From: a virus
Lineage: Duplodnaviria > Heunggongvirae > Uroviricota > Caudoviricetes
Reading direction: 5' to 3' (one strand)
DNA length: 64,000 nt
IMG/VR virus record: IMGVR_UViG_3300025066_000017
Below the pieces are notes generated by a model that saw nothing but the letters and a program-made list of their open reading frames with translations, had not been told where the DNA came from and did not search any database. A program made the translations under genes and the position numbers. Of the stretch, positions 122 through 53,888 are shown piece by piece. Every line of letters starts with the position of its first letter. Position 1 is the stretch's first letter.

Positions 122-676
122 TCAATCCCTTGAAATAGTCATACTAACCGTTCCTAATTCCTTATCTCCCCGATGTTTTTGGACATACTCTGCAAAGCAA
201 CCCTCTTTTGTTGCATCCCAAATCTCCTGATGCAACCTCTTCCTCCTTTCGCTCTCCATTGCCCAAGCAGTGAAAACCCAAAAAAACCAAAATACTGAGC
301 AAAATATATATCCTGCAGCGGCTATGATTGGCCCATAGGATACCGATATTTGTTTTGCCCCCCAGACCCTCGGTATATTCCCTAGCAATCTTTCTCTTCG
401 ATATTCCGCAAACGATTCCTCTTTCGCCTCATCCGACTCACATAGACGCCCTAGCCACAATATAAATGTCACGAGGCCAAAAAATACTGCGTTCAATACA
501 ATCAGGTTCCCTGCCCAATCCTGCTTAAACCAAGACAGTGATATCGCCAGTGCTAGAAACATCACATTTAGAAAATACGATAGAAAAAGCGCTCTCCTGC
601 CCCTCGGCGATAAAGAAACCTTAAATTTCCCTCGAGGCACCTCTTTGCGAAAAACTTCTTCGTTCTCAATGCTCAT
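122..676 (-). CDS. Integral membrane protein (about 4 predicted TM helices), translationally coupled downstream of the SPFH gene
   Basis: ORF overlaps the upstream SPFH ORF by 4 nt. Hydrophobic segments LFLSYFLNVMFLALAISL, LIVLNAVFFGLVTFILWLG and IIAAAGYIFCSVFWFFWVFTAWA are present. No recognisable catalytic motif. Confidence 0.5.
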   Translation of the reverse strand: MSIENEEVFRKEVPRGKFKVSLSPRGRRALFLSYFLNVMFLALAISLSWFKQDWAGNLIVLNAVFFGLVTFILWLGRLCESDEAKEESFAEYRRERLLGNIPRVWGAKQISVSYGPIIAAAGYIFCSVFWFFWVFTAWAMESERRKRLHQEIWDATKEGCFAEYVQKHRGDKELGTVSMTISRD

Positions 677-1644
677 CGTATTCTTTTCCCGCCCACACTT
701 GTTGCGGGGCTTTTCCGCAATCTCTTTTTCGACTTTCTGCGCTTTCGCCTCGTTGTCCGACTCAAATCAAAAGTAGGAAGTAATCCCCGACTATTTCCTC
801 CTGTAATAATTACCTTGTCCCCAGGAGCCACTCTCTTGTAGAGAATTTCATTATTATCTAGCTCACGCAGCCGTAAATATTTGTTCGTCAGGGCTGCCCC
901 GATAATCTTAATTCTCTCCGATTGTGCCTTTGCCTCCAAAGCAATAACCTGACGACGCAAAAGAGCAATTCGCTTTCTGTTCTGCATTTTCAATAATTCT
1001 ATCGCTTGTCGAGCTTTTTCCTCTTTGAGCTTGATCTCCTTCTCTCTCCGGCGCTCAACCGCTCTTGTAATCACATCAGGATAATCAAAATTAGAAGCTC
1101 TCACAAAAGGAACTTCCATAGGAGTCCCCTTCAAAGCAATTCTCAACTTGTTATGTATTGCTTTTTGTATCGCCGCACGAGATTCTCTGATCTGCACAGT
1201 TTGATAACTGGAGACAACCTCTCTCGCGATAGATTTCGCTGTTGGCTTTACATATGTATTGTATAATTCTTCAAACGTAAGAACATTCTTTTTGTTCGTA
1301 CCTTTTCTATTAAACACTGCCATGAGTTCTCTGCCACTCTTTGCTTTTAGACGCGCTCTGATTTTTAAAGAGAACTTGAAATTTAAATCATCTGCGCAAA
1401 GAATATTCAACTTAATTGCTCTCATTACCTCCTTGAATTCAACAAGAACAAGCTTGTCCCATTGATACATATTGTGCTTTCCGGGTTGCAAGATTTTACC
1501 CGTTAAACCCGACCGCGTCATCACCATGCCCAGATAACCCGGAGGTACCATTTGGCTACACTTGCACCCAGAGGCTGTAAAGCTCAAAAGGAACAAAAAA
1601 ACCAAGCTCCACTTCATGAATTTTATATTTTCTTTTCTCTTCAT
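673..1644 (-). CDS. SPFH/band-7 (prohibitin/HflKC/flotillin-like) domain lipoprotein
   Basis: N-terminal signal with lipobox-like FTASGC; true start is probably at MKWSLVFLFLL. The C-terminal half has the SPFH coiled-coil region (EKEIKLKEEKARQAIELL...ALEAKAQSERIKIIGAAL...LRLRELDNNEILYKRVAPGDKVIITGG), resembling the ...LRYLEtL...vilp end of band-7 proteins. Confidence 0.65.
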   Translation of the reverse strand: MKRKENIKFMKWSLVFLFLLSFTASGCKCSQMVPPGYLGMVMTRSGLTGKILQPGKHNMYQWDKLVLVEFKEVMRAIKLNILCADDLNFKFSLKIRARLKAKSGRELMAVFNRKGTNKKNVLTFEELYNTYVKPTAKSIAREVVSSYQTVQIRESRAAIQKAIHNKLRIALKGTPMEVPFVRASNFDYPDVITRAVERRREKEIKLKEEKARQAIELLKMQNRKRIALLRRQVIALEAKAQSERIKIIGAALTNKYLRLRELDNNEILYKRVAPGDKVIITGGNSRGLLPTFDLSRTTRRKRRKSKKRLRKSPATSVGGKRIR

Positions 1645-1673
1645 CTTGCCTATCTCCCTAAAGATTTTAAATC

Positions 1674-2102
1674 TTATTTTTGTTTTTTTCTGCGATTAGC
1701 TTCCTTTAAGATTCGTTTGACCTCCTTGTCCACTTCGCTTGTTGGCTTATCCATCTTTCTGAGTAGTGGATCCTTTCTCTTAACCGCATCCTTCTTTAGT
1801 TCCGGAAGAGGAATCTCTTGGGGAGCCGACTGATTCTGTTTGTAAGTCCCATCTTCTTCCACCGAAGGACCAGGATCAACAGGTCTTATCTGCAACATCC
1901 CTATCAAGGCAACACAACCAATAAAGATACCAACTCCCAACAGCCAAGCTCTATGCCTCGATCGTAGACGTGATACTTCATCCATCTCCGTATCAAATGC
2001 AATGAGTATGTTTTTTATGCCGTATGCAGACATAATAACCATAACAATCACCACCAACATTGTTATGAAACCTTCTATATTATTCATAAAACTATCAAGC
2101 AT
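1674..2102 (-). CDS. Small membrane protein with two TM segments and a Lys/Arg-rich C-terminal tail
   Basis: Hydrophobic stretches ITMLVVIVMVIMSAYGI and AWLLGVGIFIGCVALIGML, followed by a charged tail KRILKEANRRKKQK. Function unknown. Confidence 0.45.
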   Translation of the reverse strand: MLDSFMNNIEGFITMLVVIVMVIMSAYGIKNILIAFDTEMDEVSRLRSRHRAWLLGVGIFIGCVALIGMLQIRPVDPGPSVEEDGTYKQNQSAPQEIPLPELKKDAVKRKDPLLRKMDKPTSEVDKEVKRILKEANRRKKQK

Positions 2103-2170
2103 CTACCTTTCTCCTGTTTATCTAAAATCAACACCCATATAAACACAAAACTATAAATAATCAGAACTTT

Positions 2171-3689: not shown

Positions 3690-4541
3690 CTACCTCATAC
3701 TCCTCCTTCTACCAGGAGGGTCCGGAACCAAACCAGAAAAAATCGAATATTTATATTCTGGAAAATTTCTCTCCAACCAATCATTCACGTCTTGGTATCT
3801 AAACCACTCTCCATGAGACCGACAAAATGCAAGATCATCATGTACCTTCTTCTCCGACCAACCCCTGGCCATATGAGGAAACATGAACAATAAACTAAGC
3901 TTCGCAGGACTATTGGTGCGCAAACTCGATAATCGGGACTTCATGCCTCGAGACCTTCCTATTTTGATACGCCCTATACCCTCCGCAAGAACAAAATACA
4001 CCTGCGAACCATAGCACCGTCCCAAAACTCTTGTTTCTGAAGTAATATCAAGAGAACTACGATAAGATTGATCATAAAACCAACGCCCTCCAATATTCAC
4101 AACTGCTGGTTTGGGATGTCTATATTGGCTTCGCACTACATACTCAACCCCATAGCCACAACTGCTCCTCGGACAAGCAACACAGCACCATGTGTATATG
4201 TGTTGTTTGCTTGCAACCATCAATGTTGAATGTCCGTGCATATCCTTTCTTATTGGACAAGCACATCCACCACAAGCTCTGATTGTTGGAGATGTATGGA
4301 GACTCGGTATCTCTGGTACCCAAGTCTCATCGTTTCCTAAACTGTCCTTAACAGTGAAGCTTTCCCCGGGATTCAATAAAGGAGGAATATCTACATACTC
4401 CCCACGATGATTGATCTTGAAAAAACCCAAAGGATTTTCCTCGATTGATTCCGTTTTTATTTTTGGTTCAACCGGAACAATCTCTTCTACCTCAACCATA
4501 TCTATATTCTCAACCCAGACATCTTGGACATAACCGCACAT
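3690..4541 (-). CDS. T5orf172 (MUG113, GIY-YIG superfamily)-like domain protein with Cys-rich N-terminal domain; paralog A
   Basis: C-terminal ...VYFVLAEGIGRIKIGRSRGMKSRLSSLRTNSPAKLSLLFMFPHMARGWSEKKVHDDLAFCRSHGEWFRYQDVNDWLE matches the T5orf172 pattern (IKIG.T.N...R...L......L....F......E..LH..F...R..GEWF). The N-terminal half is Cys-rich (CGGCACP...CCVACPRSSCGYG). Likely start at the internal Met (MVEVEE, about 4499), which removes the 40-nt overlap with the upstream gene. Confidence 0.6.
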   Translation of the reverse strand: MCGYVQDVWVENIDMVEVEEIVPVEPKIKTESIEENPLGFFKINHRGEYVDIPPLLNPGESFTVKDSLGNDETWVPEIPSLHTSPTIRACGGCACPIRKDMHGHSTLMVASKQHIYTWCCVACPRSSCGYGVEYVVRSQYRHPKPAVVNIGGRWFYDQSYRSSLDITSETRVLGRCYGSQVYFVLAEGIGRIKIGRSRGMKSRLSSLRTNSPAKLSLLFMFPHMARGWSEKKVHDDLAFCRSHGEWFRYQDVNDWLERNFPEYKYSIFSGLVPDPPGRRRSMR

Positions 4542-5275
4542 TGAAACTCAGGAAATGTATCCAGTAACCATTCAAATGCAGCATTACTTTCAAACCACTC
4601 ACCATGACTACGATGAACAACCAACTCTTTGTGGATCTTCTTTTCTGTCCATCCCCGCATCCCCTCCATGAAAGAAAAAACGAGGAACAATGGTGTCGGT
4701 GAGTCACCTCGTAAAGAACCCAAGCGTTGATACAATCTAGAACTTCTGCCTATTTTCACTCTCTCGCACTCTTTCGATAAAATAAAGTAAACATGCTCCC
4801 CATGTAGGGATTTACAAAGGAGCCTTTCTCTATCCCTTAGAATCCCATCTCGAAACATACGAGAACTAAGCTTCTCTTCCTTTCCCCAAACATAAAAATT
4901 CTTTTCCTCTCCAGAACAAACATACGACCTACAAGCTGTACTGCAGCGCATCCAGTATTGGTTCCTATGCACAAACCACAGAACTCTGCTTTCTATGGCC
5001 TGCTCCCACAACAATGCTGTGCAACTAGGACATCTATCCGGAACAGGATCCCCGCTGTAAACAGGTGCGTCTGCAATAATCTCATGCTTTCCTATTTTGA
5101 TAACACCTCCCACAGGTATTATCTCTTCTGTCTGCGGAAAGCTAATAGTATCCACATGTGCGATGCTTTTATCTGAAGTTCCTCCCAAGTCTCTAGATAA
5201 ACGATGTGGTGCACAACCTATTCGCGACTCTCGAGAAAGATGGCGACGAACTATCCCATTGAATAAGTAACTCAA
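4502..5275 (-). CDS. T5orf172 (GIY-YIG superfamily)-like domain protein with Cys-rich N-terminal domain; paralog B
   Basis: C-terminus ...VYFILSKECERVKIGRSSRLYQRLGSLRGDSPTPLFLVFSFMEGMRGWTEKKIHKELVVHRSHGEWFESNAAFEWL is colinear with the downstream paralog. N-terminal Cys cluster CPSCTALLW...CSTACRSYVCSGEE. Confidence 0.6.
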   Translation of the reverse strand: MSYLFNGIVRRHLSRESRIGCAPHRLSRDLGGTSDKSIAHVDTISFPQTEEIIPVGGVIKIGKHEIIADAPVYSGDPVPDRCPSCTALLWEQAIESRVLWFVHRNQYWMRCSTACRSYVCSGEEKNFYVWGKEEKLSSRMFRDGILRDRERLLCKSLHGEHVYFILSKECERVKIGRSSRLYQRLGSLRGDSPTPLFLVFSFMEGMRGWTEKKIHKELVVHRSHGEWFESNAAFEWLLDTFPEFQCAVMSKMSGLRI

Positions 5276-8066: not shown

Positions 8067-9912
8067 ACAAATTCTCCTTTTGTCTTTTTCAAATCAGTAA
8101 AAACACAACTCTTTCATTAACTTCTAAATAAAAAAACTTTAGAGTCTAAAGATTCAACCCAAAAACCAACAAGAGCAGGAACACTCCTCCCAAAAAACAA
8201 TAATCCCCACCGATCTCTAAAAGATCACATCACCCCAAACACTAAAACATCTACCCTCAAACACCACTGCCACAAACAACTAAAGCTAAAATAACCACCC
8301 ACTAAAGCCCCGTTTTATCAAACACCCCTAAAGACCCATGGTTTTATTAACTTGACGCTTCTCATATCCCCAATCTAGAGTCGTCCTCATTGTTGTTATG
8401 TTTGGTAGATGCTTCCCAAAAAAAATCAGCACCCCTCGGATAGGGCGACCCCGGCTTAAACGAAAAAAGCCACCCTAGAGTATGGCAGCTTCTTTCTAGT
8501 TGCTTGTACAAAACCTAACCGAGTAAAGAAAGGAAGCACAAACTACCCGAACAAGATTAGAGTAAGGAGATCGACAAGAAATGTCAAATGTTTTCTTCAA
8601 CTCTGCAAACTCCCTTGCAGAGCCACTTCTCTCTTGCAATGAGAAAGAAATGATGAAGAATACAAATCTCTACAACACTTCTCGCAAAAATCCTCTCCCG
8701 GATGAGAAGGACCCTACCGTTCGATTTGGACCGAATGTATTTCATTGCGACTCTAACCTTGAACAACAATACCACCTAATCCCCACTACCCCCCACCAAT
8801 CATGCAATGACAACGACTCCACCCGCGTGGCCAAAATTGGAGTCAACTATCCAATTGCACATTTCTCTACGATTCTCCAAAAGCAACACTTCATTGGCGA
8901 AGCGCTGCGGAAAATTATACGGCAATTGCATAATGGGCAACTGAGAGGCCCACCCCTCCGATTCTGCAGTACCTCCTACAAAATGACCCTTGCCCCCCGA
9001 GGTCCAGAGACAACAAACAGTTATTCTCCAACAGGCAACACCACACCGTCACCCACATCACATAAACTTTTGTCCTCCAGAAGAAAACCAAACCACGGTG
9101 CGAACAAAAGTAACACCAATACCTCTTCTAGAGCGTTATGTGATCGCATGACACCGAACAACCACCCTGCTTGTGGACGAACGTATCTGCAGACGCCCTC
9201 TGGTAAAAAAAACTGCACACTTATGGGGAAACCACAACTCTGCAAAGAGTTGCTACATAGATAAGGGAACAAGTAACAAAGTGGCTCTTTTTTCGATTAC
9301 ACACGAGAATGATAACGAACTAGACACAAAACAAGTTCGCCCTCATACCTCACCATCCCTAAAAAGACACCCACTCTGATTGTCAGTCTTTGAGTTTCTT
9401 TGGTCATTTCTTCTCCGATAGGTCGTGAAACTCCTCCGGGAGTTACCCCCCAAATCCTATCCTACAAGCTCCTGACAACACCTCTTCAAAACTTATCGAA
9501 CTATCCCGATAGCACAGCACCCGATCTGTACCTCTTTTTTTGCACTGCACCACGAACAGATCAACACCCCCTTTGGCCTTGTATTGGTTGTACCAATCAA
9601 CCCATACGCCTAGCTGAAATCAAGAAGAGAAAACACAACACTAAAACTAGTTTCTCACATAAGTCAGAATCACCTTAAGTCATCCTTAACTTAAATTATC
9701 CCTGCCTTATTTCTTAACTAGTTCTAATCTCCCCTCCCATCAATTCTCTTCTTCTGATTAATTATTCTAATTTAAAATTTAGTGTTTTTTATCAGTTCTG
9801 CTCGGCCTCTCGCTTCGCTCTCTCTATTTCACGCCAAAAAGGGGGGAGTGCGTCTTCTGGATTCCTTGCATTTCGACCTTTTTAGTATTTTTAGACCGGG
9901 CTCAATCAGACC
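8067..9912. other. About 1.8 kb non-coding, strongly A+C-skewed (G-poor) tract between the divergent minus-strand (122-8066) and plus-strand (9913-15291) gene blocks
   Basis: No convincing ORF. Track ORFs here (8581-9264 and others) have non-protein-like N/S/T/P/H composition. The plus strand is nearly devoid of G over long stretches, for example 8160-8340. Contains degenerate half-sites of the palindrome (tctagagtc at about 8376; tctaaaagatc at about 8216) and the AT-rich leader of the + operon. Confidence 0.5.
8125..8143. promoter_or_regulatory. Palindrome variant AACTTTAGAGTCTAAAGAT, copy 2
   Basis: Upstream of the first minus-strand gene (7746-8066), at the edge of the non-coding tract. 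Confidence 0.65.
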
Positions 9913-10479
9913 ATGATGATAAATCGAAAACAAAGAGACGATGATACTATCACCCACATCCTGGCTATTAGTTTCAAGAGAGACAGTGAAACAGAAAGAA
10001 ACTTAAACATGATCCTCCAAGATGGTCCGTACAAAGACTGGGGGGATATGTTTATGAATTTGGCAGAGCTTGCCTTTTTCATTATCGACCGTAGAAAAAA
10101 TGGATATAAATTCTACCTAAGAGAGATTGGTCCCAATCAACCCTTTGTGGAGATACGCCAGCTTCCTGGTCCAGATCCCGATATAGAAAATCTCTTTAGA
10201 CAAGAAGAAGAGACTGATATAAAATTGCTCGACTTTGTTTATAAAGATGATGTGGGTAGAGAGAAATCTCTTTTATCGTTATCCAAGGATGATGAAGACA
10301 ATCCTGTGAATGAGCCTATGCCGGATGGACTATCTCAAGACATAGGTTCACCCGAGAATCTTCTTCTTCAGATCGATCCAGAAACGTTGCTAGGTATGAA
10401 GATATCGTTAGATCTTTCCTGGTATGAAAGAATCTGGTTCAGTTTTCGGCTCATGGTAAAAATAATCTTTAGACTCTAA
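9913..10479 (+). CDS. Hypothetical protein
   Basis: 188-aa ORF, first gene of the plus-strand block. Its stop codon lies inside a palindromic motif copy (10465-10483). Confidence 0.45.
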   Translation: MMINRKQRDDDTITHILAISFKRDSETERNLNMILQDGPYKDWGDMFMNLAELAFFIIDRRKNGYKFYLREIGPNQPFVEIRQLPGPDPDIENLFRQEEETDIKLLDFVYKDDVGREKSLLSLSKDDEDNPVNEPMPDGLSQDIGSPENLLLQIDPETLLGMKISLDLSWYERIWFSFRLMVKIIFRL

Positions 10480-12283: not shown

Positions 12284-12765
12284 GCACCCGGATGCGAAAT
12301 GTTTCTTTGGGCTTCACAGAAGATGGATATTCATTATCAGGCAAGATATTCAAGGATCATTTCCATAACATACTTTTAGGCTTACATGCTATTGCGCGAT
12401 CATTTAAAGATGAAGATTGTGAGAAGAGTCTTTTTGGTAAAAAAACTTATTGCTTGCCATGCCCAACAACAAAAGAACAATGGGAGAAAATATTAGAAGT
12501 ATCAGAAAATGTTGCAACAGAGTGCGCAGGGATTATTTTATTTGTATCTGGAATAAGTGGAATTGATTGCTATGTCTTCTTAGACAAAGACTCAATAAGA
12601 GAATGTTTAGATGCCTCGGTATTTGAATCTCTTCATCATAACAATACGGAAACTGTATTTTTAGATCATCATAGAATTATCCCCAACACCATGTGCCCGT
12701 CTTGTAAACATAAATTTCATAGTGATAATCCAATAGATTTTGTTTCTATTCTTTTATCTTCTTAA
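12280..12765 (+). CDS. Hypothetical protein
   Basis: 161-aa ORF with a 4-nt overlap with the upstream gene. Confidence 0.45.
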   Translation: MSTRMRNVSLGFTEDGYSLSGKIFKDHFHNILLGLHAIARSFKDEDCEKSLFGKKTYCLPCPTTKEQWEKILEVSENVATECAGIILFVSGISGIDCYVFLDKDSIRECLDASVFESLHHNNTETVFLDHHRIIPNTMCPSCKHKFHSDNPIDFVSILLSS

Positions 12766-13059
12766 TTATCGCCTCTCATCCATATCCATCTCGCTCTCCT
12801 CTTCAATCTCAATTATCCCCTCCTCACTCTCTTCTGTAGGTAAACAAAAAAAGGTCGCCAACATCCTCCCTTGTCTTAACCTTAGTGAAATCAAGTCTTC
12901 CTTCTCCAATCCCATCTCTTCTGCTCTTACCCAAATTCTAGAAACCGCGTTACGTCGGCTTTCTCGTTTTCTTTTCCTCTGTTGGCGTCTATATCTCTTT
13001 CTTTCTGCAGGGCTTTGGTTTTGCTGTATCCATTCCCAGGTTTCGTTTCTTTTGGCCAT
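12766..13059 (-). CDS. Possible small protein with basic N-terminus and acidic C-terminus (lone minus-strand ORF in plus block)
   Basis: 97-aa ORF: RKRYRRQQRKRKRESRRN ... EESEEGIIEIEEESEMDMDERR. It is more protein-like than the overlapping plus-strand low-complexity ORF 12740-13099, but neither is certain. Confidence 0.3.
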   Translation of the reverse strand: MAKRNETWEWIQQNQSPAERKRYRRQQRKRKRESRRNAVSRIWVRAEEMGLEKEDLISLRLRQGRMLATFFCLPTEESEEGIIEIEEESEMDMDERR

Positions 13060-13091
13060 TTCAAAACTCCGAAAAAAAAATGAAGACGTAA

Positions 13092-13110
13092 ATCTTTAGA
13101 CTCTAAAGAT
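13092..13110. promoter_or_regulatory. Palindrome copy 4
   Basis: Lies between gene 12280-12765 (and the minus ORF 12766-13059) and the gene at 13270. Confidence 0.7.
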
Positions 13111-13269
13111 TTTGACAAAAACATCTTCTAAAAACAAGAGGAAATCAAAGGAAGAATGATGAAAGAAGAGACACAGGCGAAACAATCCCAATTTGAATGG
13201 ATTCAATTATCTTTCTAGATTTCAATCGAGAACTAGCCTAATTTTTTCTACTTACAGAGGAACTATCTC

Positions 13270-13755
13270 ATGAGAAAAGCTTTACCAGATCGAATTAGAA
13301 ACATCCTAAACCACCCCACCATCAGATTTGTTATTGATGCAATGGATGAAAATTTTGACAACGATCGCATCGGGGACTTATATCGTGAACTAAGCTCCAT
13401 TGCCAATGATGTCGAAGAGGAACTGGGAAAAAGAAGTCGTCGAAGAAGTCGAGTCAAAGAGGCATCTACGGCGACTGTTGACGTAATCGAAGATAATGAT
13501 AAAATTCTATCATCCCACGGAGTAGCAAGACTTCTACAAGTTAGCCCCTCCGCAGTCATTTCTTGGATTGACTCGGAAAAGCTTGATGGTTTTCGCACAA
13601 GTGGTGGCCACCGTCGCGTAAAAACAAGCAATCTTATCCTATTTCTCAAAGAACAAAACATGCCCATCCCCGCCGCTCTCATTGATACTGATGTCGACAT
13701 TAGCGTTGATACTCGTATCGACCTTAATGAGGATAAAGCACCACGACAACAATAA
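13270..13755 (+). CDS. DNA-binding protein with excisionase/MerR-type helix-turn-helix domain
   Basis: LSSHGVARLLQVSPSAVISWIDSEKLDGFRTSGGHRRVKTSNLILFL resembles the excisionase-family HTH (...lgvs..ti.r....g.lpa.k.Gr.wri....l..fl). Confidence 0.55.
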   Translation: MRKALPDRIRNILNHPTIRFVIDAMDENFDNDRIGDLYRELSSIANDVEEELGKRSRRRSRVKEASTATVDVIEDNDKILSSHGVARLLQVSPSAVISWIDSEKLDGFRTSGGHRRVKTSNLILFLKEQNMPIPAALIDTDVDISVDTRIDLNEDKAPRQQ

Positions 13756-13799
13756 TAAATTGCGCCTTATCCATAACAAAGAAGGAACTATGCACAATC

Positions 13800-14189
13800 A
13801 TGGAATCTCGCAACAAACCACGCACATGGAAAGAAAGAAAAGCGGTCATCGACCGCTGGGGATGGGGACTCTTCTCCTTTTTGGTAACAAACGGTCTAAC
13901 CGACATCAAACAAATACGATATATTCTACAAGCCCAAAAGGCCCTGTTGCGTGGTAGAGTGCAAAAAGCATTGGAGCTTATAGATCTGTGCTTGGATCTT
14001 ATGGAGCGAACTGCAGAGATATACGAACCCGCGATAGAAAAGCGACTTCGAGAATTGATCTTCGGCACATCATTCAAGGACGAGACTGAAGAACCTACTA
14101 CACCAAATGCAAAAAAGAGTGCTACGGGAGAAAATAATAATGGGGACTACGGAAATTTTCCCACCGGAATCGGTCGATATAACATGTGA
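13800..14189 (+). CDS. Hypothetical protein
   Basis: 129-aa ORF. Overlaps the next ORF in another frame. Start is uncertain. Confidence 0.35.
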   Translation: MESRNKPRTWKERKAVIDRWGWGLFSFLVTNGLTDIKQIRYILQAQKALLRGRVQKALELIDLCLDLMERTAEIYEPAIEKRLRELIFGTSFKDETEEPTTPNAKKSATGENNNGDYGNFPTGIGRYNM

Positions 14190-15291
14190 AGACTGCAAAG
14201 ACCACTATTGGTTTTCTAATAATATTGTCAAAGTCATTGCAGACACCACGGGGAGAGAGTTTGATATCCCCACCCCTCCCTTATTCGCAGTTCATATCTA
14301 CATAAAGAAAACGAGCCATCATCCTGCCTGCCCCCGATATATGGAATGGGTTGAAAAACTTACAAGCGAATGCTCATGTAAGACAGATGTATGGTCCGGA
14401 GAAGAAGTCAGAGAACTCTGCTATCTTATGGGTTGGAGTTTTTACGGGTCGATAGATGTTATAATGATACCTCGACATCATATCTCTTGTCCTCATTTTG
14501 AAACGTGGAAGACTAGATATTTATACTATAAAGAGCTATTGGTCGGTGTTGATATAAAACCACAAGCATCAGATACTTCTTTTACAGAAACGAAAGAAGA
14601 TTCCAAGAGAAGTGTAATGGTTAAAGCGCTTGATAAACTTATAGGAATAAGCGGACTCAACGCTAGGTTCTCTCCATGCCATCAAGAGAGAACATCCAGA
14701 AACTGGCTTGATCTCATTGGGGATGAGTTGGCAGAAGTTAGAGACCATCTGGATACGGATGGATCCTTTCTTGGTGATAAGGTCGACAATGAAATAGGTG
14801 ACTTGCTTTGGAATGTTGTTTGCTTCTGCAGACATCTTGCCGATGAATACCCAAACACTATCGAAAATGCTGTTCGCGATATACAAACAAAACTCATGAG
14901 ACGCAAACCCAATATCTTCGAGGGACATTCTTTGCCATCGTCCGATGACGAGCAAAGAATATGGAATAGAGAAAAGGGTGCAGAAAAGAAAGAACGATTC
15001 TCTTATATTCTGTCAGATATAGATTTTGGAAAAGAAATAATAGGCCCGGATGAGTCAACCAGAGTCTTTCCCGTTATTCTTCGAGAAGACTTCCCCACAA
15101 ACTGTCTAGTCATTGGGGACGCTACATTCTTGGATCTTTACCTAAACGGACTCCTTACAAAAGAAGCCTGCCTAAAAGAAATACATCTGCACTACAATGT
15201 AGAGGGAGTAACTACTCTTCCCGATACTATGAGCGAAGAACACCAAGAGAGATGGCTAGCTCTACTGAATCAGCTAGCTCTACTGGATTAA
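14107..15291 (+). CDS. MazG-like nucleotide pyrophosphohydrolase domain protein
   Basis: WLDLIGDELAEVRDHLD...NEIGDLLWNVVCFCRHLADEYPNTIENAVRDIQTKLMRRKP matches the all-alpha MazG NTP-PPase pattern (E.gE..ea.......e...ElgDvL..l..la...gid.e.a....l.K...R). The true start may be MGTTEIF at about 14140. Confidence 0.55.
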   Translation: MQKRVLREKIIMGTTEIFPPESVDITCEDCKDHYWFSNNIVKVIADTTGREFDIPTPPLFAVHIYIKKTSHHPACPRYMEWVEKLTSECSCKTDVWSGEEVRELCYLMGWSFYGSIDVIMIPRHHISCPHFETWKTRYLYYKELLVGVDIKPQASDTSFTETKEDSKRSVMVKALDKLIGISGLNARFSPCHQERTSRNWLDLIGDELAEVRDHLDTDGSFLGDKVDNEIGDLLWNVVCFCRHLADEYPNTIENAVRDIQTKLMRRKPNIFEGHSLPSSDDEQRIWNREKGAEKKERFSYILSDIDFGKEIIGPDESTRVFPVILREDFPTNCLVIGDATFLDLYLNGLLTKEACLKEIHLHYNVEGVTTLPDTMSEEHQERWLALLNQLALLD

Positions 15292-50021: not shown

Positions 50022-53000
50022 TCACATTTGATTTGGATCGTTTGGATCTGGCACACCACCCAAAGGAGGAATTTTGTTTCTATCCGGATTAGTCTGCATA
50101 TAAAGCGGAACTGGCTTGGCTTGACCATACCCTGGAATTTCATTCTCACCCGCAGTCATATACGCCATTTGCTCCTCACTGGGATCGGGCAACATCTGCC
50201 CCTCTTCTTCCAATAAGGTTCTCGCCTGAATCCAAGCAGGGTTCAAAATCACATTGCCATCCGGACGAGGAGGAAGACCCTCAGATGCACGACCTTCATT
50301 AAGTGTCATAAACGCGCTCATCTTCATATTAAGAAGCTCCACGCGCTCTCTCTCAGACAACTCATCCAAACCAACAAAATCGAAATACAACCTCGAATCC
50401 AATGGGTCCACTATGTACTTCGTGATTTGTTTCGATATAAAACGAAGCAGAGGCCGAAGCCCTTTGTCTCGAGAGTGCTTTATTTTCCACTCGTGCTTAC
50501 TCTCAAACACAGGTGCCCCACCACTCCCACCACCACTTGTTAAATCAAAACCAACCTCAGATGGATCAATCAAGTAAGACGCGCAAACCTGACGAATCAA
50601 ATACTCCAGCCAGGACTGGAATTCCATCTCCCGATTCGTATGCTGCAGGTCGATGTATTCCATCTGTTCCGCCTGCAATATAGGGGTTCTGAACGAGTTT
50701 GAAATGACAATCCCGTTCGCGGCAAAAGCGTGTAGATCTGTGTTGATAGAAACATCAAACATGTCAACGAAATCAGTTGTTATCTCAATTTCTGAGATAG
50801 GAGAGAAGTGATACTCAAGAAGCCAGTTGGGTGGAGTAATATTTACTTTCTCAAGAAATCGAAGAATGCGGGGGAGACTACACCCATCATCGCCTCGAAT
50901 TATCGCATTAAGGTCCAACCTTTCTCGCAGGGTTAGTAATTCGTAATTAGCCTCTTTGTTCTTTTTTTGTATTTTTCTGGCGAAGAAATAAGTTGTTCGC
51001 GGAGAAACCCGGCTATGTTTATTCGCCTCGTTGGGGTTTACTAAATCATCGGGCTGCTTGTGGTCTTGAAGGAATCCAATGTTTTCATAAAAGTAGTCTT
51101 TGTCTTTTATGCGAAGAAGCGACTCTTTCTCTTCGTAATACCGAAGAGGGCCATCTATGACAATTTTTTGTTTTCCTTCCGACAGATTTGTTCGGATTCC
51201 AACTGAACTAAGAAGCCACTTCACTTCCTGACGCAAACTATCATTTGTGATCGTGATTGCGACAAAACGTCCATCTCCTATGTGACCATCGGCAGAGAAG
51301 AGTCCTCGGAGAAAAGCAAATTTCAATTCATTGGGAAGGGTATACACAAACGGAGGGACGTTTTTCCCTTCAGAGGAAAACTGGAATCCGACTTCTTTTA
51401 ACCATCTGGCAAAATTGACGTTATTTAAAACAATTTGAAGTCGCTCAGACGCAACACTCTTGAAACCATATCGTTCTTTGATCTTTTCCTGTTCTTCGGG
51501 AGTAATGTGGATATCTTTCAAACGTGCTGCAGGATCAAAGTCTTTGAGTATGGAAAGATGTCGTTCTCGTATCTCTCTTTCTTTTTCATGGTGATAGAAA
51601 CAAAGCATTCCTTTATCACTAAAGTACCCATCACCAACAGCCCATCCTAGGACTTCCATGAGATCGGGTGTGACTTGTTTTCCGTTGCAGTGTGGAATAT
51701 TGTCCGGGTTTTGTGGGGATTGTTTGTTTACAAGAACATAATCCCCTTCTTGAAGATCTTCGAGTCGTTTCCAAACAGGAAGACCATCTCCACCACCTAA
51801 AACTCTAAACTTATGATCTGGTGATGATTTGATCTCCAATCCACACGCCAGTTTTAGACGACAAAGTTGTTTTTGCTCCTTTGTGCGATAGACCAGACCA
51901 GAAGCCCATTCTTTTCCTGTCCAGATTGTCGCTTCTTTTTCTTCCGTGCCTTCAATATAGTTTTCAAGAGAAACCATCCCTTCTTCTCTTGTCCAGATTG
52001 TCGTATCTCCATGAAGACAGTTTTCCACACCTGCGATCATGGCATACCAAGCTCTTCTAAAGCTTTCCATTTGGGCCTCGGAAATCTCGTCGCCCTTAAT
52101 GTTGATCAATCCCTTCGGCGCGGAGTTGGAGAGAATCACTCCACCACAGGACCACTGGTGCGAGGAATCCTTGATTCTCACATCGTACATTGGGCGCATC
52201 TCTTCCATGTCTTCGATAGAAGAAACACGAATCCATTGGTAGGAGAGTTCCTCCAGGAAATCCCAACAATCCAGTTTCTGACAGATTTCAATTATTTCAT
52301 CTCTAGAACATAACTCTTGGCTAGAATCATCCGCAAAATTGGCAAGTTTTAGCAAAAGTGTTCTTTCCTCGAAGAATAAAGAACTTATATCGCAATGCTC
52401 CTCTAAATGCTTTGCCATTCTTTTTAATAGAGGCTTGGGTATATTTTTGTTTCTTATGTAGATCAGAGATTCGGGCAATTCTATGGGGGCTACTTCTAAG
52501 CTACGAGCAACAAAATCACCTTCTTGTATCTCCGCGATTGGCCTCATGAGTATCTCGCCGCTATCCGTCAGTGCGAGGAACTTATGGTCGGGTGATGTGT
52601 GTATCTCAAATCCATCATCAAGTGTTGTTCGAATGGTTTCTTTTTGCCCCGTAGAGACAACATCAAAAGGAACCCACCTCGATCCATTCCAAACATTTCC
52701 GATGGGTGAAAATTCGACATCTGGATTTACTGGGAGATCTTTGATGTAGAAAACACCTTCGTCAGTAAAAACTCTTGTGTCCTCTCCCACACAACCCTGC
52801 TTAAAGAAAGCTCGATTATAAATCTCGCCCCAAAGCATCCCCAGGACAGCGTTGAGGGCTTTCTCTAGTTCACTGGTTCCGTATCCATTGTTCCAGATAT
52901 TGGTTTCAGGGTTTCTCACACAGAATGCAAGATCATTGTATGAAAAGATATTTTCGATGCGGCCATGAAGGAGTTGTATAGAAAAGACCTGATCAGATGT

Positions 53001-53888
53001 CATGCCTCCAAACTCTTCTCCATATACTTTTTTCCATCTCTCCTGGAAGCCATCTGTAAATTGTTCACGCTGCAGTCTGTTGGGACCGCTTCCTCGGAAA
53101 CCTTCAAATGTGGCTGCGAGTCTAATTGTTGCGGCATCTACTGCTCTGAACTCATAGGGGCGACCATATGTGTCTGGAGTGATTTCGGCGCATGCCTGAT
53201 CTAGCGTAAGTGAGTCTGTGGTGAATTTTCTAAGAAAAGTCTCAAAGTCATCTCGTGGGTAGGGAGAGTATGGGTTGGGTCCAAATCCACACGCCATAAT
53301 CATTTGCTCGAGTCTTCGAATCTGTTCCTTTTCTTCATCAGATGGTTGATGTCCATCGTCCTTGAATCGGATTTGAAATCCGACCTGCTTGTTTTCTCTA
53401 TAGGGTTGGGCGAAGGCTGCGACTTGGTTGACTCGTGTCGTGATAATGGAAGCGATGATAGGCACCTGCTTCACAATGGCGCGTAGGGCGTCAAAGGACA
53501 CCGAGAAGCGACGTTCTCTATATCCGGCAGAGTACATGAGTGTCAGAGGGTCGAAGAATCGCGTGCGTGGCCCTCTCGCAGGAACCATTCCACTGGGAAG
53601 AGACTTGTATGCGTCCGGGCCTTGTCTATACATACTGGGAGACATTTGGGTTGATGGAGTGATAATACTGCTTTGTTGTTCTGCGGCATTGTGAGTAGCC
53701 AGAACATTCCCTGTTCCTACAGGGACTCCATTATTTTTTACCTCACTCCCTTTTGCTCCATGCACTCCACCATGATAATGATCTTGAAAAAAAGCATTCG
53801 GTGAAGAAGATACAGTTTGCTCCTGCATCATCAACATCGAATCTTCTTGACCCATAGCTCTGTTTTTCAACCAACTATTTATACTCAT
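50022..53888 (-). CDS. Portal-like protein precursor containing two inteins (extein about 624 aa)
   Basis: Two Cys-initiated Hint segments. Each has a ...SPDHKF(L/R)... block and ends in (G)I(V/L)(I/L)SN followed by Ser. No Walker A motif in the exteins, which argues against terminase. Position upstream of the head genes. Confidence 0.55.
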   Translation of the reverse strand: MSINSWLKNRAMGQEDSMLMMQEQTVSSSPNAFFQDHYHGGVHGAKGSEVKNNGVPVGTGNVLATHNAAEQQSSIITPSTQMSPSMYRQGPDAYKSLPSGMVPARGPRTRFFDPLTLMYSAGYRERRFSVSFDALRAIVKQVPIIASIITTRVNQVAAFAQPYRENKQVGFQIRFKDDGHQPSDEEKEQIRRLEQMIMACGFGPNPYSPYPRDDFETFLRKFTTDSLTLDQACAEITPDTYGRPYEFRAVDAATIRLAATFEGFRGSGPNRLQREQFTDGFQERWKKVYGEEFGGMTSDQVFSIQLLHGRIENIFSYNDLAFCVRNPETNIWNNGYGTSELEKALNAVLGMLWGEIYNRAFFKQGCVGEDTRVFTDEGVFYIKDLPVNPDVEFSPIGNVWNGSRWVPFDVVSTGQKETIRTTLDDGFEIHTSPDHKFLALTDSGEILMRPIAEIQEGDFVARSLEVAPIELPESLIYIRNKNIPKPLLKRMAKHLEEHCDISSLFFEERTLLLKLANFADDSSQELCSRDEIIEICQKLDCWDFLEELSYQWIRVSSIEDMEEMRPMYDVRIKDSSHQWSCGGVILSNSAPKGLINIKGDEISEAQMESFRRAWYAMIAGVENCLHGDTTIWTREEGMVSLENYIEGTEEKEATIWTGKEWASGLVYRTKEQKQLCRLKLACGLEIKSSPDHKFRVLGGGDGLPVWKRLEDLQEGDYVLVNKQSPQNPDNIPHCNGKQVTPDLMEVLGWAVGDGYFSDKGMLCFYHHEKEREIRERHLSILKDFDPAARLKDIHITPEEQEKIKERYGFKSVASERLQIVLNNVNFARWLKEVGFQFSSEGKNVPPFVYTLPNELKFAFLRGLFSADGHIGDGRFVAITITNDSLRQEVKWLLSSVGIRTNLSEGKQKIVIDGPLRYYEEKESLLRIKDKDYFYENIGFLQDHKQPDDLVNPNEANKHSRVSPRTTYFFARKIQKKNKEANYELLTLRERLDLNAIIRGDDGCSLPRILRFLEKVNITPPNWLLEYHFSPISEIEITTDFVDMFDVSINTDLHAFAANGIVISNSFRTPILQAEQMEYIDLQHTNREMEFQSWLEYLIRQVCASYLIDPSEVGFDLTSGGGSGGAPVFESKHEWKIKHSRDKGLRPLLRFISKQITKYIVDPLDSRLYFDFVGLDELSERERVELLNMKMSAFMTLNEGRASEGLPPRPDGNVILNPAWIQARTLLEEEGQMLPDPSEEQMAYMTAGENEIPGYGQAKPVPLYMQTNPDRNKIPPLGGVPDPNDPNQM
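50697..52019 (-). mobile_element. Intein 2 with LAGLIDADG homing endonuclease (about 441 aa: CLHGDTTIW ... ANGIVISN | S)
   Basis: aa 624-1064 of the same ORF. Two LAGLIDADG-type motifs (LGWAVGDGYF, LRGLFSADGHIGDG) lie between the Hint halves. Confidence 0.55.
52125..52793 (-). mobile_element. Intein 1 (mini-intein, about 223 aa: CVGEDTRVF ... MYDVRIKDSSHQWSCGGVILSN | S)
   Basis: Coordinates computed from aa 366-588 of ORF 50022-53888. N-terminal splicing block C-x-G-x-T, TSPDHKFLAL block and C-terminal block ending SN+S. Confidence 0.5.

Follow-up and report, generated by a model that had tools for sequence, protein, structure and literature searches.

Why would a phage carry the gene for an SPFH lipoprotein, and which of the membrane proteins encoded beside it might be its working partner? 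The question is raised by one end of the DNA analyzed here, a stretch of 64,000 nucleotides from IMG/VR virus record IMGVR_UViG_3300025066_000017 (referred to below as the window), where the ORF list has three co-directional genes on the minus strand, at 122..676 (184 aa), 673..1644 (323 aa) and 1674..2102 (142 aa). [quoted passage not shown] The lipoproteins of this type that occur in phages have been on record since 2006 with no function assigned (PMC1524935); they have been carried through genome papers for 20 years, and an account reaching to literature of 2026 still states their role in phages as unclear (PMC13239085).

Read in the direction of transcription, the first of the three genes encodes the 142-aa protein with two transmembrane segments (TMs; 2102..1674), the second the 323-aa SPFH lipoprotein (1644..673) and the third the 184-aa membrane protein (676..122). 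An initial annotation, made from the sequence of the window, had the two-TM gene following the SPFH gene, but in this order it stands first. The same annotation set the three genes at the end of an operon, whereas contigs of the same phage carry further same-strand genes beyond window position 1 (encoding a 159-aa protein, a DUF1653 protein, a 315-aa protein and others). Its 4-nucleotide overlap between the SPFH gene and the next gene is borne out by the ATGA at 673-676. Genes for tail sheath, baseplate and portal identify the window as phage DNA. The three genes lie in a neighbourhood of small non-structural genes, and the long minus-strand block in which the tail, baseplate and portal genes were identified begins ~15 kb away, running from 15,288 onward. 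When the first 8 kb were compared as DNA with 50,697 phage records, no match emerged, and a scan for promoters and terminators gave a result no better than that for shuffled sequence. The features of the locus are as follows.

1674..2102, minus strand: gene of the 142-aa hairpin partner, first of the module, with a strong Shine-Dalgarno sequence (AGGAGA) upstream (ORF, ribosome-binding site, family HMM).
2010..2072, minus strand: TM1 of the partner, ~residues 11-31 (hydropathy; AF2 helix 2-38).
1887..1946, minus strand: TM2 of the partner, ~residues 53-72, after the Arg-rich loop SRLRSRHR, which is predicted to be cytoplasmic (hydropathy, positive-inside).
1677..1886, minus strand: tail of the partner, residues 73-142, predicted to be periplasmic; a disordered linker with family motifs, then the C-terminal amphipathic helix EVDKEVKRILKEANRRKKQK (family alignment, HMM, AF2).
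673..1644, minus strand: SPFH/Band-7 lipoprotein gene, 323 aa plus stop (Pfam, PHROG, homologues, predicted fold).
1564..1644, minus strand: signal peptide and lipobox, residues 1-27 (sequence, alignment, AF2).
1003..1551, minus strand: SPFH (Band_7) domain, residues 32-214 (Pfam, AF2).
832..1077, minus strand: long coiled-coil-type helices, residues 190-251 and 254-271 (AF2, Foldseek).
676..756, minus strand: lineage-specific polybasic C-terminal extension, ~residues 297-323, RTTRRKRRKSKKRLRKSPATSVGGKRIR (alignment, AF2).
673..676, minus strand: ATGA overlap of the SPFH stop with the start of the 184-aa gene (sequence).
122..676, minus strand: lineage-specific ORFan membrane protein of 184 aa with three hydrophobic segments (ORF, hydropathy).

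The central protein scores 62.4 bits with Pfam Band_7 (PF01145) over residues 32-214, well above the cut-off of 23.6 (E=7.4e-17), and its residues 7-310 align with profile positions 79-375 of the 379 in phrog_200, "lipoprotein" (E=6.6e-35). These matches, together with the lipobox and the phage structural genes, agree with the initial description of a phage-borne SPFH lipoprotein beside membrane proteins, and they supply the SPFH profile hit that had been named as its check. The lipobox, A-S-G-C, occupies residues 24-27 (window 1564-1575; ...FTASG-C27), with the signal read as MKRKENIKFMKWSLVFLFLLSFTASG-C27. By this motif the mature protein begins at Cys27, which is predicted to be lipid-modified and is followed after just ~5 residues by the first strand of the SPFH domain; the AF2 model has a helix at residues 4-26 and then a strand from residue 28. 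The lipobox Cys of the homologues forms an invariant column in an alignment of 27 sequences, where MAFFT puts Cys29 of the window protein, two residues past Cys27, as the result of a local offset in CKC. Asp at position +2 after the lipobox Cys occurs in 0 of 25 sequences.

The AF2 model of the protein (mean pLDDT 82) places the SPFH domain at residues 28-184, with strands at 28-99 and helices. Its top Foldseek matches are subunits of prohibitin, stomatin, HflK/C, erlin and QmcA, which along with flotillin have a probability of 1.00; the alignments to cage subunits are full-length (260-305 columns; E=5.7e-15 for PHB2), and a profile search of the PDB found prohibitin-2 at E=3.3e-7. As modeled, the protein has the complete architecture of the solved cage subunits: the SPFH domain is followed by a long coiled-coil helix and then by a second helix, and a conserved strand motif lies toward the C-terminus. 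In the solved SPFH complexes the equivalent long helices build the wall of the cage. The closest homologues form a metagenomic clade of 67 clusters at 37-52% identity, and those of isolated phages, for which tblastn found matches in 103-114 phage records, are 23-31% identical. The polybasic C-terminal extension is missing from all 26 aligned homologues and has a pLDDT of ~50 or below. An inverted repeat that could form an mRNA hairpin lies at 701-721, within the part of the gene that encodes this extension. Between the window and a sister strain the SPFH gene has 6 synonymous differences and 1 non-synonymous difference (T315I, in the extension).

The likeness to HflK and HflC brings up the idea that the phage protein mimics them, its periplasmic assembly capturing or regulating host FtsH or another inner-membrane protease and so altering membrane-protein turnover, the lysis-lysogeny decision or the takeover of the cell. 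The lipobox and topology would put its SPFH domain in the periplasm, the compartment of HflK/C, and the fold fits the subunits of HflK/C-FtsH as well as prohibitin, which is also a partner of an FtsH-type protease. We nevertheless regard such mimicry as unlikely. No NCBIfam model, any HflK/HflC model in the library included, was matched at E<=0.01; the window has one SPFH ORF and no paralogous pair, and the anchor is a lipobox Cys instead of an N-terminal TM, so that an identity as HflK or HflC was rejected. The protein also displays no sequence feature specific to FtsH. The lysis-lysogeny role (HflKC/cII) that had been suggested fits poorly: the isolated carriers belong to groups of large virulent phages, for which a cII-type decision would be irrelevant, and the scanned subset of window proteins includes no integrase or repressor family.

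The choice of a membrane partner lies between the products of the two flanking genes. The initial annotation took the coupled 184-aa protein to be the functional partner and the two-TM protein to be accessory, a layout in keeping with the ATGA overlap and the weak Shine-Dalgarno-like stretch upstream of the 184-aa gene, which agree with translational coupling and indicate co-translation with the SPFH gene; the ORF is also long and shares the strand of the SPFH gene, and its product is hydrophobic. This 184-aa protein is, however, an ORFan: a search of 5.8 billion proteins recovered its own cluster alone, and tblastn found no homologue in ~100 other SPFH loci. Downstream genes at other loci are variable, and at 45 of 64 loci the downstream product has no predicted TM (at least three TMs are predicted at 3 of 64). 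Where four TMs had been counted, hydropathy gives three hydrophobic segments (~29-47, 58-76 and 110-139), the third a single stretch of 27-31 residues, and the protein has no NfeD domain. We therefore hold it improbable that the 184-aa protein is the functional partner. It is probably an addition of this lineage outside the conserved core of the module, and it may be a client of, or add-on to, the SPFH module. Four codons of its gene differ from those of the sister strain, 2 of them synonymously and 2 non-synonymously.

The upstream gene presents a different picture. Among 80 non-redundant SPFH loci, 68 have upstream DNA; those from IMG/VR were gathered by alignment-based scans, a single-protein locus search having retrieved none. 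At 55 of these 68, the SPFH gene is preceded by a gene for a 116-171-aa protein with exactly two N-terminal TMs, which ends ~-12 to +60 nt from the SPFH start, which has a binomial probability of 2e-37 against an inflated base rate of 12.6%. The pairwise distances of the SPFH proteins and of the partners are correlated (Mantel r=0.71; 0 of 2000 permutations gave a value as high). These sequence comparisons show that the hairpin gene is conserved in its adjacency to the SPFH gene and co-inherited with it. An upstream partner occurs in PAK_P3, RisingSun, PS119XW and Miami, and in PhiSH19 as an unannotated 72-aa ORF. In seven isolated phages of six lineages (ACP17, Vibrio PG07, Aeromonas AhSzw-1, XacN1, Vibrio D490, Pseudomonas SYP and Variovorax V45v66) a two-TM equivalent lies directly downstream of the SPFH gene; these proteins have the architecture of the window's family with little or no detectable sequence similarity to it, so that their common ancestry with the family is a candidate relation.

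Because the flanking genes are not conserved from locus to locus, the SPFH-hairpin pair moves as a cassette, a mobile unit that is common to jumbo, T4-like, T5-like, Vi01-like and PAK_P3-like phages. The isolated phages that carry it belong to large virulent groups, and their hosts are presumably all outer-membrane bacteria. The three metagenomic carrier contigs that were examined are also large-phage-like, with lengths of 181 kb, 90 kb and 22 kb (the last from a cluster whose longest contig is 207 kb). An SPFH protein of this kind can exist without the hairpin, since chromosomal homologues in Myxococcota (51% identity) stand alone. A link to a Myxococcota host was considered on the strength of these homologues and rejected, the GC content of their contigs being 55-58% as against 44% in the window.

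The 142-aa protein of the window falls within this pattern. When a family HMM was derived from 38 ORFs that lie upstream of SPFH genes, with the window sequence excluded, the 142-aa protein was matched from end to end (E=1e-17, 59.5 bits) and was the sole match among the window ORFs. Members of the family have ~115-170 aa, two TMs in the first ~80 residues, a basic loop between the TMs, a hydrophilic tail with a C-terminal helix and an adjacent SPFH lipoprotein gene, all of which hold for the 142-aa protein; the alignment has the motifs FGPG after TM2, PDEK.., LK(R/K) and EADxYIxxALKR. By these sequence features it belongs to an undescribed hairpin family, of which it is a divergent member, with RPVDPGP in place of FGPG and a net basic tail. 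The two TMs and the Lys-rich tail of the initial annotation are confirmed by two hydropathy segments and by 13 K in 70 residues (along with 6 R, 6 D and 7 E), which amounts to 19 K/R and 13 D/E compared with family means of 12.8 and 16.3. That annotation had regarded the protein as a holin- or spanin-like neighbour; adjacency, the family HMM and co-inheritance make it the conserved partner instead. No Pfam, PHROG, NCBIfam or PADLOC family was matched by it, and PADLOC and NCBIfam searches (the latter at E<=0.01) gave no matches for any of the three proteins. An alignment of the partner recovered 4 proteins from a set of 5.8 billion, and phmmer recovered 3 from 1.84 billion representatives; the family was recovered by its position beside SPFH genes because its sequence diverges too fast for searches of protein sets. 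We found no report in the literature of a conserved hairpin partner of the phage SPFH lipoproteins.

The distribution of basic residues suggests how the partner might lie in the membrane. Across the family the mean number of K+R is 5.2 in the loop between the TMs compared with 0.2 in the N-terminal flank and 1.35 after TM2, a pattern seen in 47 of 49 members. The predicted topology is N-out with a cytoplasmic basic loop and C-out, by which the ~70-residue tail would be periplasmic, on the same side as the lipoprotein. The AF2 model, made from a four-sequence alignment, has a pLDDT of 62 (below 50 for residues 72-111), a helix at 122-141 and no beta-barrel.

A small membrane protein encoded ahead of an SPFH gene invites comparison with NfeD. 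The order of the genes and a partner size of ~145 aa fit the short NfeD-SPFH operons, of which yuaF-floT, yqiJ-yqiK and PH1510-PH1511 are examples, and the locus might on this account be a canonical NfeD-SPFH operon taken from a host, one of its membrane proteins being a divergent NfeD. NfeD pairs with SPFH proteins that face the cytoplasm, whereas the SPFH protein encoded here is exported. SPFH genes are frequently found in operons with NfeD genes (PMC13086221). The domain search for NfeD that had been proposed gave no match for either membrane protein, however: PF01957 matched none of 39 partner-family sequences at E<=0.01 and neither the 142-aa nor the 184-aa protein at E<=1, and a profile search of the PDB returned no NfeD chain at E<=10. 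In the AF2 model, at low confidence, the partner tail is disordered apart from one helix and does not form an OB-fold barrel. NfeD identity was rejected for both proteins on the Pfam, PDB-profile and AF2 results; the operon explanation is largely refuted, and we give it hardly any weight.

Could the locus be a device for lysis? In such a device the two-TM or the 184-aa protein would be a holin or pinholin, or a membrane protein and the lipoprotein would together be a two-component spanin. A lipoprotein encoded together with an inner-membrane protein is superficially reminiscent of Rz/Rz1, the missing +2 Asp would permit sorting of the lipoprotein to the outer membrane, and Pfam Phage_holin_3_6 gives a weak match to the 184-aa protein, at 19.7 bits below its cut-off of 28.4 (E=9e-4). 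The i-spanins have one N-terminal TM and a coiled coil, the o-spanins are small Pro-rich lipoproteins, and spanins are late genes. A two-TM protein and a 323-aa SPFH lipoprotein do not resemble this make-up, and with no lysis cassette nearby (no endolysin family occurs among the scanned products flanking the three genes on either side) an identity as a spanin pair was rejected. Holin identity was likewise rejected, the 184-aa match being sub-threshold and the 142-aa protein matching no holin profile; the predicted N-out/C-out topology of the latter also differs from that of class II holins.

Expression data for a relative bear on the same question. Phage PAK_P3 encodes a 29%-identical SPFH homologue, gp041, with 25,101 mean normalised counts and a log2 late/early ratio of -0.51 that is not significant (PMC4933390 S5 Table), from which it follows that its mRNA is already abundant at 3.5 min (PMC4933390); the PAK_P3 homologues are transcribed to a like extent in the early and the late phase. 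The unconventional lysis role raised in the initial annotation thus loses ground, the PAK_P3 gene being high early instead of late-specific and a separate Rz-like spanin being annotated in that phage, and we consider it quite improbable. The gp041 mRNA is ~15-fold above that of the neighbours gp039, gp040 and gp042 (PMC4933390); with the partner mRNA this far under that of the SPFH gene, a 1:1 stoichiometry is not suggested. The transcriptome papers examined for PA5oct and other Pseudomonas phages make no mention of the SPFH gene, and a "prohibitin" match in the CRISPRi-ART paper turned out to be the word "prohibiting".

For phage GIB1 it has been hypothesized that such a lipoprotein functions in the virion or at entry (PMC13239085), riding with the particle and aiding adsorption or DNA entry. 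Virion mass spectrometry did find RisingSun gp131 (1 peptide, 95% confidence) and Sajous1 gp200 (listed with 3), but these very low peptide counts are compatible with membrane debris. A lipoprotein processed by Sec and Lsp would be made in the envelope along with its hairpin, whereas the cytoplasm is the site at which tailed virions are put together. The location of the module, among small non-structural genes and far from the structural block, also speaks against a virion component. We judge this very unlikely.

The reading to which we lean, by a modest degree, is that the SPFH and hairpin genes are a two-gene module for a periplasmic SPFH scaffold, expressed early in PAK_P3, that would organize or protect the host envelope. 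The product of gene 1 (2102..1674) would be an inner-membrane hairpin, N-out and C-out with a cytoplasmic basic loop and a tail ending in an amphipathic helix, and that of gene 2 (1644..673) a lipid-anchored SPFH protein facing the periplasm. If HflK/C, prohibitin, stomatin and QmcA-YbbJ are a guide, the lipoprotein would oligomerize, and the resulting ring or dome would rest flat against a membrane on its periplasmic side. We infer that this membrane is most likely the inner one; because +2 Asp is missing, the sorting rule of E. coli would also allow the lipoprotein to go to the outer membrane, apart from its inner-membrane partner. The hairpin might bind the lipoprotein via the periplasmic tail and supply the TM element that the lipoprotein lacks, in an adaptor role like that of NfeD for cytoplasmic SPFH proteins; both the formation of a cage and the physical interaction of the two proteins are steps that we infer. 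From early in infection the module could then fence off or stabilize a patch of the host envelope. The likeliest benefit to a large virulent phage would be envelope maintenance or superinfection exclusion, and both the latter and a general modulation of membrane or envelope are plausible.

More tentatively, and with doubt, we can imagine a wider generalization: that large virulent phages of outer-membrane bacteria share an unrecognized two-component envelope device, in which an exported SPFH lipoprotein and a hairpin that replaces NfeD build HflK/C- or prohibitin-like cages in the periplasm early in infection and so wall off or reinforce the envelope. If this were true, the device might serve superinfection exclusion, confer resistance to abortive-infection effectors that target membranes or prevent premature lysis. 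In the window phage both the SPFH protein and the hairpin have polybasic C-termini, which at the apex of a dome could touch an anionic surface, be it incoming DNA, peptidoglycan or the membrane on the other side; the assembly would then be a trans-periplasmic structure.

The gain from the comparison of loci is a concrete, testable unit, in that the SPFH lipoprotein genes are almost always accompanied by one specific hairpin protein, whose gene is unannotated or "hypothetical" in the records examined and is not called as a gene in PhiSH19. The pairs gp40-41 of PAK_P3 and gp156-157 of Klebsiella phage Miami offer tractable systems for genetics and cryo-EM. If the two proteins do form cages in the periplasm, they would represent a simple SPFH system without NfeD and would also reveal a phage strategy for remodeling the host envelope.

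Among known systems, the Rz/Rz1 spanins and the T4 Imm/Sp proteins are similar in that a phage inner-membrane protein is found with a periplasmic or lipoprotein component, and T4 Imm is a small two-TM early protein in superinfection exclusion. No sequence or domain relationship of these proteins to those of the window was found, and the PAK_P3 SPFH homologue is expressed early. Prohibitin PHB1/PHB2 is the best profile and fold match of the SPFH protein, spanning SPFH, CC1 and CC2, but the identity is 16-20%, and the prohibitin complex, a hetero-oligomer with TM anchors in the inner membrane of mitochondria, has neither a hairpin partner nor a lipid anchor. With HflK/HflC of E. coli, in which SPFH and coiled coil are periplasmic, the fold aligns over 270-300 columns; these are a paralogous pair with N-terminal TM anchors, whereas the window has one SPFH gene, a lipid anchor and a separate hairpin. 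The NfeD-SPFH operons (QmcA-YbbJ, FloA/FloT with NfeD, PH1510-PH1511) likewise join a co-inherited small polytopic protein of ~140-170 aa to an SPFH protein, and the window partner is plausibly an adaptor for oligomerization or anchoring; they differ in that QmcA and the flotillins face the cytoplasm, while the SPFH protein described here is predicted to be exported and lipidated and its partner is without the NfeD OB-fold. The cage of QmcA-YbbJ is composed of 26 heterodimers (cited in PMC13086221). Members of the same family, by profile, are the other phage SPFH lipoproteins of PHROG 200 (PAK_P3 gp41, RisingSun gp131, Klebsiella phage Miami gp157, ORFs of the T4-like phages RB43, Aeh1 and 44RR, and Vi01-like phages), which share the lipobox, the SPFH domain, the coiled coil and the adjacent two-TM gene; compared with these members from isolated phages, the window protein belongs to a distant metagenomic clade and is set apart by its unique polybasic C-terminus and the ORFan coupled to it.

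The window is that of a phage, encoding a tail sheath, baseplate proteins, a tail lysin and an intein-interrupted portal protein, and no nucleotide-level relative was detected for its first 8 kb among 50,697 phage records. Three co-directional ORFs occupy the interval 122-2102, where the initial annotation had placed a gene trio:

2102..1674, minus strand: ORF of the 142-aa protein, first in transcription order
1644..673, minus strand: ORF of the 323-aa SPFH protein, second, after a 29-nt spacer
676..122, minus strand: ORF of the 184-aa protein, third, with an ATGA overlap (673-676) with the SPFH gene

The 4-nt overlap by which the SPFH gene had been described as coupled is thus present, and translational coupling fits the weak Shine-Dalgarno sequence of the 184-aa gene; good Shine-Dalgarno sequences precede the 142-aa (AGGAGA) and 323-aa (GGGAG) genes. 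The 184-aa ORF is probably a real gene that is co-translated with the SPFH gene. The trio had also been thought to close an accessory operon, which it does not, since same-strand genes run on beyond window position 1 in near-identical contigs of the same phage from four metagenomic samples (L008-L011).

Other genes of this phage deserve a brief record. Beyond window position 1, contig L008 encodes a 315-aa VWA-like protein (8401-9348, plus strand; phrog_7371, E=4e-51) and, on the opposite strand, a 256-aa protein resembling dimethylarginine dimethylaminohydrolase or arginine deiminase (9379-10149, minus strand). Window positions 3690-4541 and 4502-5275 (minus strand) hold two tandem overlapping paralogues whose products are Cys-rich in the N-terminal half and carry T5orf172/MUG113 domains at the C-terminus. 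The portal protein (50022-53888, minus strand; 1288 aa) has its Phage_portal domain at residues 1064-1204, and its intein carries an Intein_splicing domain (411-576) and a LAGLIDADG homing endonuclease domain (855-914). Adjoining the portal gene, a 502-aa protein (54020-55528, minus strand) contains a complete Fe/Mn superoxide dismutase domain (Sod_Fe_N 163-247, Sod_Fe_C 270-379), preceded by an extension of ~160 residues without a match. A giant 2046-aa ORF without a Pfam match (57848-63988, minus strand) lies in a region strongly negative in AT skew.

The identification of the 323-aa protein as an SPFH protein, which the initial annotation had left to a profile search, is borne out by matches to Pfam Band_7 (E=7.4e-17, well over threshold) and to PHROG 200 ("lipoprotein"; E=6.6e-35). 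Its lipobox was also read correctly: the signal peptide ends A-S-G-C27, and the lipobox Cys is invariant across the homologues in a 27-sequence MAFFT alignment, where a local offset of two residues in C-K-C puts Cys29 of the window protein, not Cys27, in its column. The tether from the putatively lipidated Cys27 to the first SPFH strand is only ~5 residues long. An AlphaFold2 model (mean pLDDT 82) has a disordered C-terminus and the following elements:

residues 28-184: SPFH domain
residues 190-251: 62-residue helix
residues 254-271: second helix

In Foldseek comparisons nearly the full chain aligns with subunits from all solved SPFH cages, first human prohibitin-2 (E=5.7e-15) and then stomatin, HflK/C, erlin, QmcA and flotillin; prohibitin-2 was again first in a sequence-profile search. 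HflK/C thus appears among the structural matches, and the NCBIfam library, including any HflK or HflC model in it, yielded no match to the protein; we regard it as unlikely that the module is an HflK/C-like regulator of FtsH. The SPFH gene is single in the window and differs from that of a sister strain by 6 synonymous and 1 non-synonymous changes.

A C-terminal extension of ~27 residues, RTTRRKRRKSKKRLRKSPATSVGGKRIR, is particular to the window phage and missing from all aligned homologues. The SPFH tail RRKRRKSKKRLRK (window 676-756, minus strand) is unusually basic, as is the tail of the 142-aa protein (1677-1886, minus strand), with 19 K/R versus 13 D/E compared with a net acidic average in its family (12.8 versus 16.3). 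The basic C-termini of the two proteins possibly reflect co-adaptation. Within the sequence that encodes the polybasic tail, an inverted repeat with a 9-bp stem, GTTGCGGGGCTTTTCCGCAAT (window 701-721), precedes the 184-aa start by ~25 nt. With no T-run following in the direction of transcription, it does not serve the trio as a terminator, though it might influence translational coupling of the 184-aa gene.

The neighbours of SPFH genes were scored with our own ORF caller and a hydropathy scan in 108 loci collected from isolated phages, IMG/VR, metagenomes and genomes, of which 80 were non-redundant; 68 of these 80 had enough upstream DNA for judgement. In 55 of these 68 the gene upstream ends ~-12 to +60 nt relative to the SPFH start and encodes 116-171 aa (median 145), of which the first ~80 residues contain exactly two TM segments; the chance probability is 2e-37 even with a deliberately inflated base rate. 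Most of the remaining loci failed only through the strictness of the criteria or have a similar gene downstream. The conserved neighbour of the SPFH gene is therefore the upstream 142-aa hairpin protein, and not the 184-aa protein that had been named as its partner. The hairpin proteins can be aligned as one family: a basic loop joins TM1 to TM2, an FGPG-type motif closes TM2, and the hydrophilic tail bears PDEK.., LK(R/K) and, at its C-terminus, a helix of EADxYIxxALKR-like sequence. An HMM made from 38 members, with the window sequence left out, matched the 142-aa protein over its full length (E=1e-17) and no other ORF in the window. Pfam, NCBIfam and PADLOC contain no model of the family, and its PHROG matches are confined to two lineage-restricted PHROGs, each hit by a single family member. 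Pairwise distances of SPFH and partner proteins are strongly correlated (Mantel r=0.71; 0 of 2000 permutations as high), the partner evolving faster (mean p-distance 0.80 versus 0.56 for SPFH). Around the pair, the genes of one locus are unrelated to those of the next, so the two genes behave together as a mobile cassette.

By comparison, the sole relative of the 184-aa protein in 5.8 billion proteins is the same protein of the same phage, and tblastn found no match to it in other SPFH loci, which speaks against its being the partner, a reading that we consider quite unlikely. It has three hydrophobic segments instead of the four TM segments ascribed to it, the third being a single unbroken stretch of ~27-31 residues. 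Its sequence distribution marks it as a lineage-specific addition, not a conserved partner.

Hairpin genes lie immediately upstream of SPFH genes in PAK_P3 (gp40), Erwinia phage RisingSun (gp130), Pseudomonas phage PS119XW (gp316) and Klebsiella phage Miami (gp156), where an overlap of 4 nt is frequent. In the Vi01-like Salmonella phage PhiSH19 (L116, JN126049), an unannotated 72-aa ORF (1932-2150, minus strand) overlaps the SPFH lipoprotein gene start by 4 nt and encodes two TM segments and a K/R-rich loop; the "superinfection exclusion protein" gene of this phage encodes a different, soluble protein and lies one gene further upstream. A second SPFH subfamily has its hairpin gene immediately downstream, in Vibrio and Aeromonas Demerecviridae, Xanthomonas jumbo phage XacN1, Vibrio phage D490, Pseudomonas SYP, Variovorax V45v66 and Acidovorax ACP17; these partners are alike in architecture to the window's family, with little or no detectable sequence similarity. 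Three metagenomic carriers were checked, two on contigs of 181 kb and 90 kb and one on a 22-kb contig whose protein cluster has a longest contig of 207 kb. They look like large phage genomes, with long runs of small co-directional ORFs without Pfam match and genes for ThyX, NUDIX, Thg1 and CCA-adding enzymes. A related large-phage contig (L118) carries an IMPDH-like gene with an HNH_3 endonuclease domain (12710-14302, plus strand), near Thg1, NUDIX and RF-1-domain genes. The pair also occurs in a cellular setting, next to asd in a complete Lentisphaerae chromosome. The most similar cellular SPFH homologues (51% identity), on Myxococcota MAG chromosomes (L005/L006/L014 and L007/L012), stand alone without a hairpin; they have an atypical lipobox, TSPG-C, and adjoin mreBC/dsbD or topoisomerase/thiolase genes.

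In 49 hairpin family members the inter-TM loop has a mean of 5.2 Lys+Arg, compared with 0.2 in the N-terminal flank and 1.35 in the 15 residues after TM2, and it is the most basic region in 47 of them. The positive-inside rule then predicts a periplasmic N-terminus and a periplasmic ~74-residue tail, so that the tail and the exported SPFH lipoprotein would share a compartment. In a low-confidence AF2 model of the window hairpin, a disordered linker separates two long helices from a terminal one, and no OB-fold was seen. A canonical NfeD operon was tested as a candidate and rejected, and we consider it extremely improbable. We somewhat favour a structural model in which copies of the lipoprotein would assemble, on the periplasmic side of a membrane, as an SPFH ring or dome, with the hairpin protein acting through its periplasmic tail as transmembrane adaptor. 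Asp at +2 after the lipidated Cys was found in none of 25 homologues, so that sorting to the outer membrane may occur; given the very short tether between Cys and SPFH domain, we prefer the inner membrane.

Some indication of timing comes from RNA-seq of the isolated phage PAK_P3 (S5 Table, PMC4933390), whose SPFH lipoprotein gp041 (29% identity) reached a mean of 25,101 normalised counts, ~15-fold over gp039, gp040 and gp042. Its late/early log2 of -0.51 was not significant, from which we infer that it is abundant at 3.5 min after infection and onward; the hairpin gp040 is likewise flat (log2 ratio 0.07; PMC4933390). Such a pattern speaks for a function that starts early and against a purely late role in lysis, although the window phage may differ. 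With abundance already at 3.5 min, it is very unlikely that the trio is a lysis device; the 184-aa protein scored 19.7 bits against Pfam Phage_holin_3_6, under the 28.4 threshold, and no endolysin family was detected among the scanned gene products flanking the trio on both sides. Trace mass-spectrometry detections would suit a virion or entry role for the SPFH lipoprotein, which we hold to be highly improbable. For the ring or dome with its hairpin adaptor, the likeliest physiological output, quite tentatively and by inference only, would be envelope stabilisation or superinfection exclusion while large virulent phages go through their long infection cycle.

The SPFH/Band-7 genes of phages were tabulated in 2006 (PMC1524935) and are repeatedly annotated "lipoprotein" in database records, and the reason for their presence in phages was still described as unclear in 2026 (PMC13239085); the window gene is a new, divergent member of this known family. 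Full-text searches covering open-access papers found no report of a conserved hairpin partner, and database records list the partner as "hypothetical" or do not call it as a gene. What would be new in an operon of the SPFH-plus-adaptor kind is that the adaptor is not NfeD and the orientation is periplasmic: NfeD does the adaptor job for SPFH proteins that face the cytoplasm, whereas here that job is proposed for an unrelated hairpin protein and an SPFH protein that faces the periplasm.
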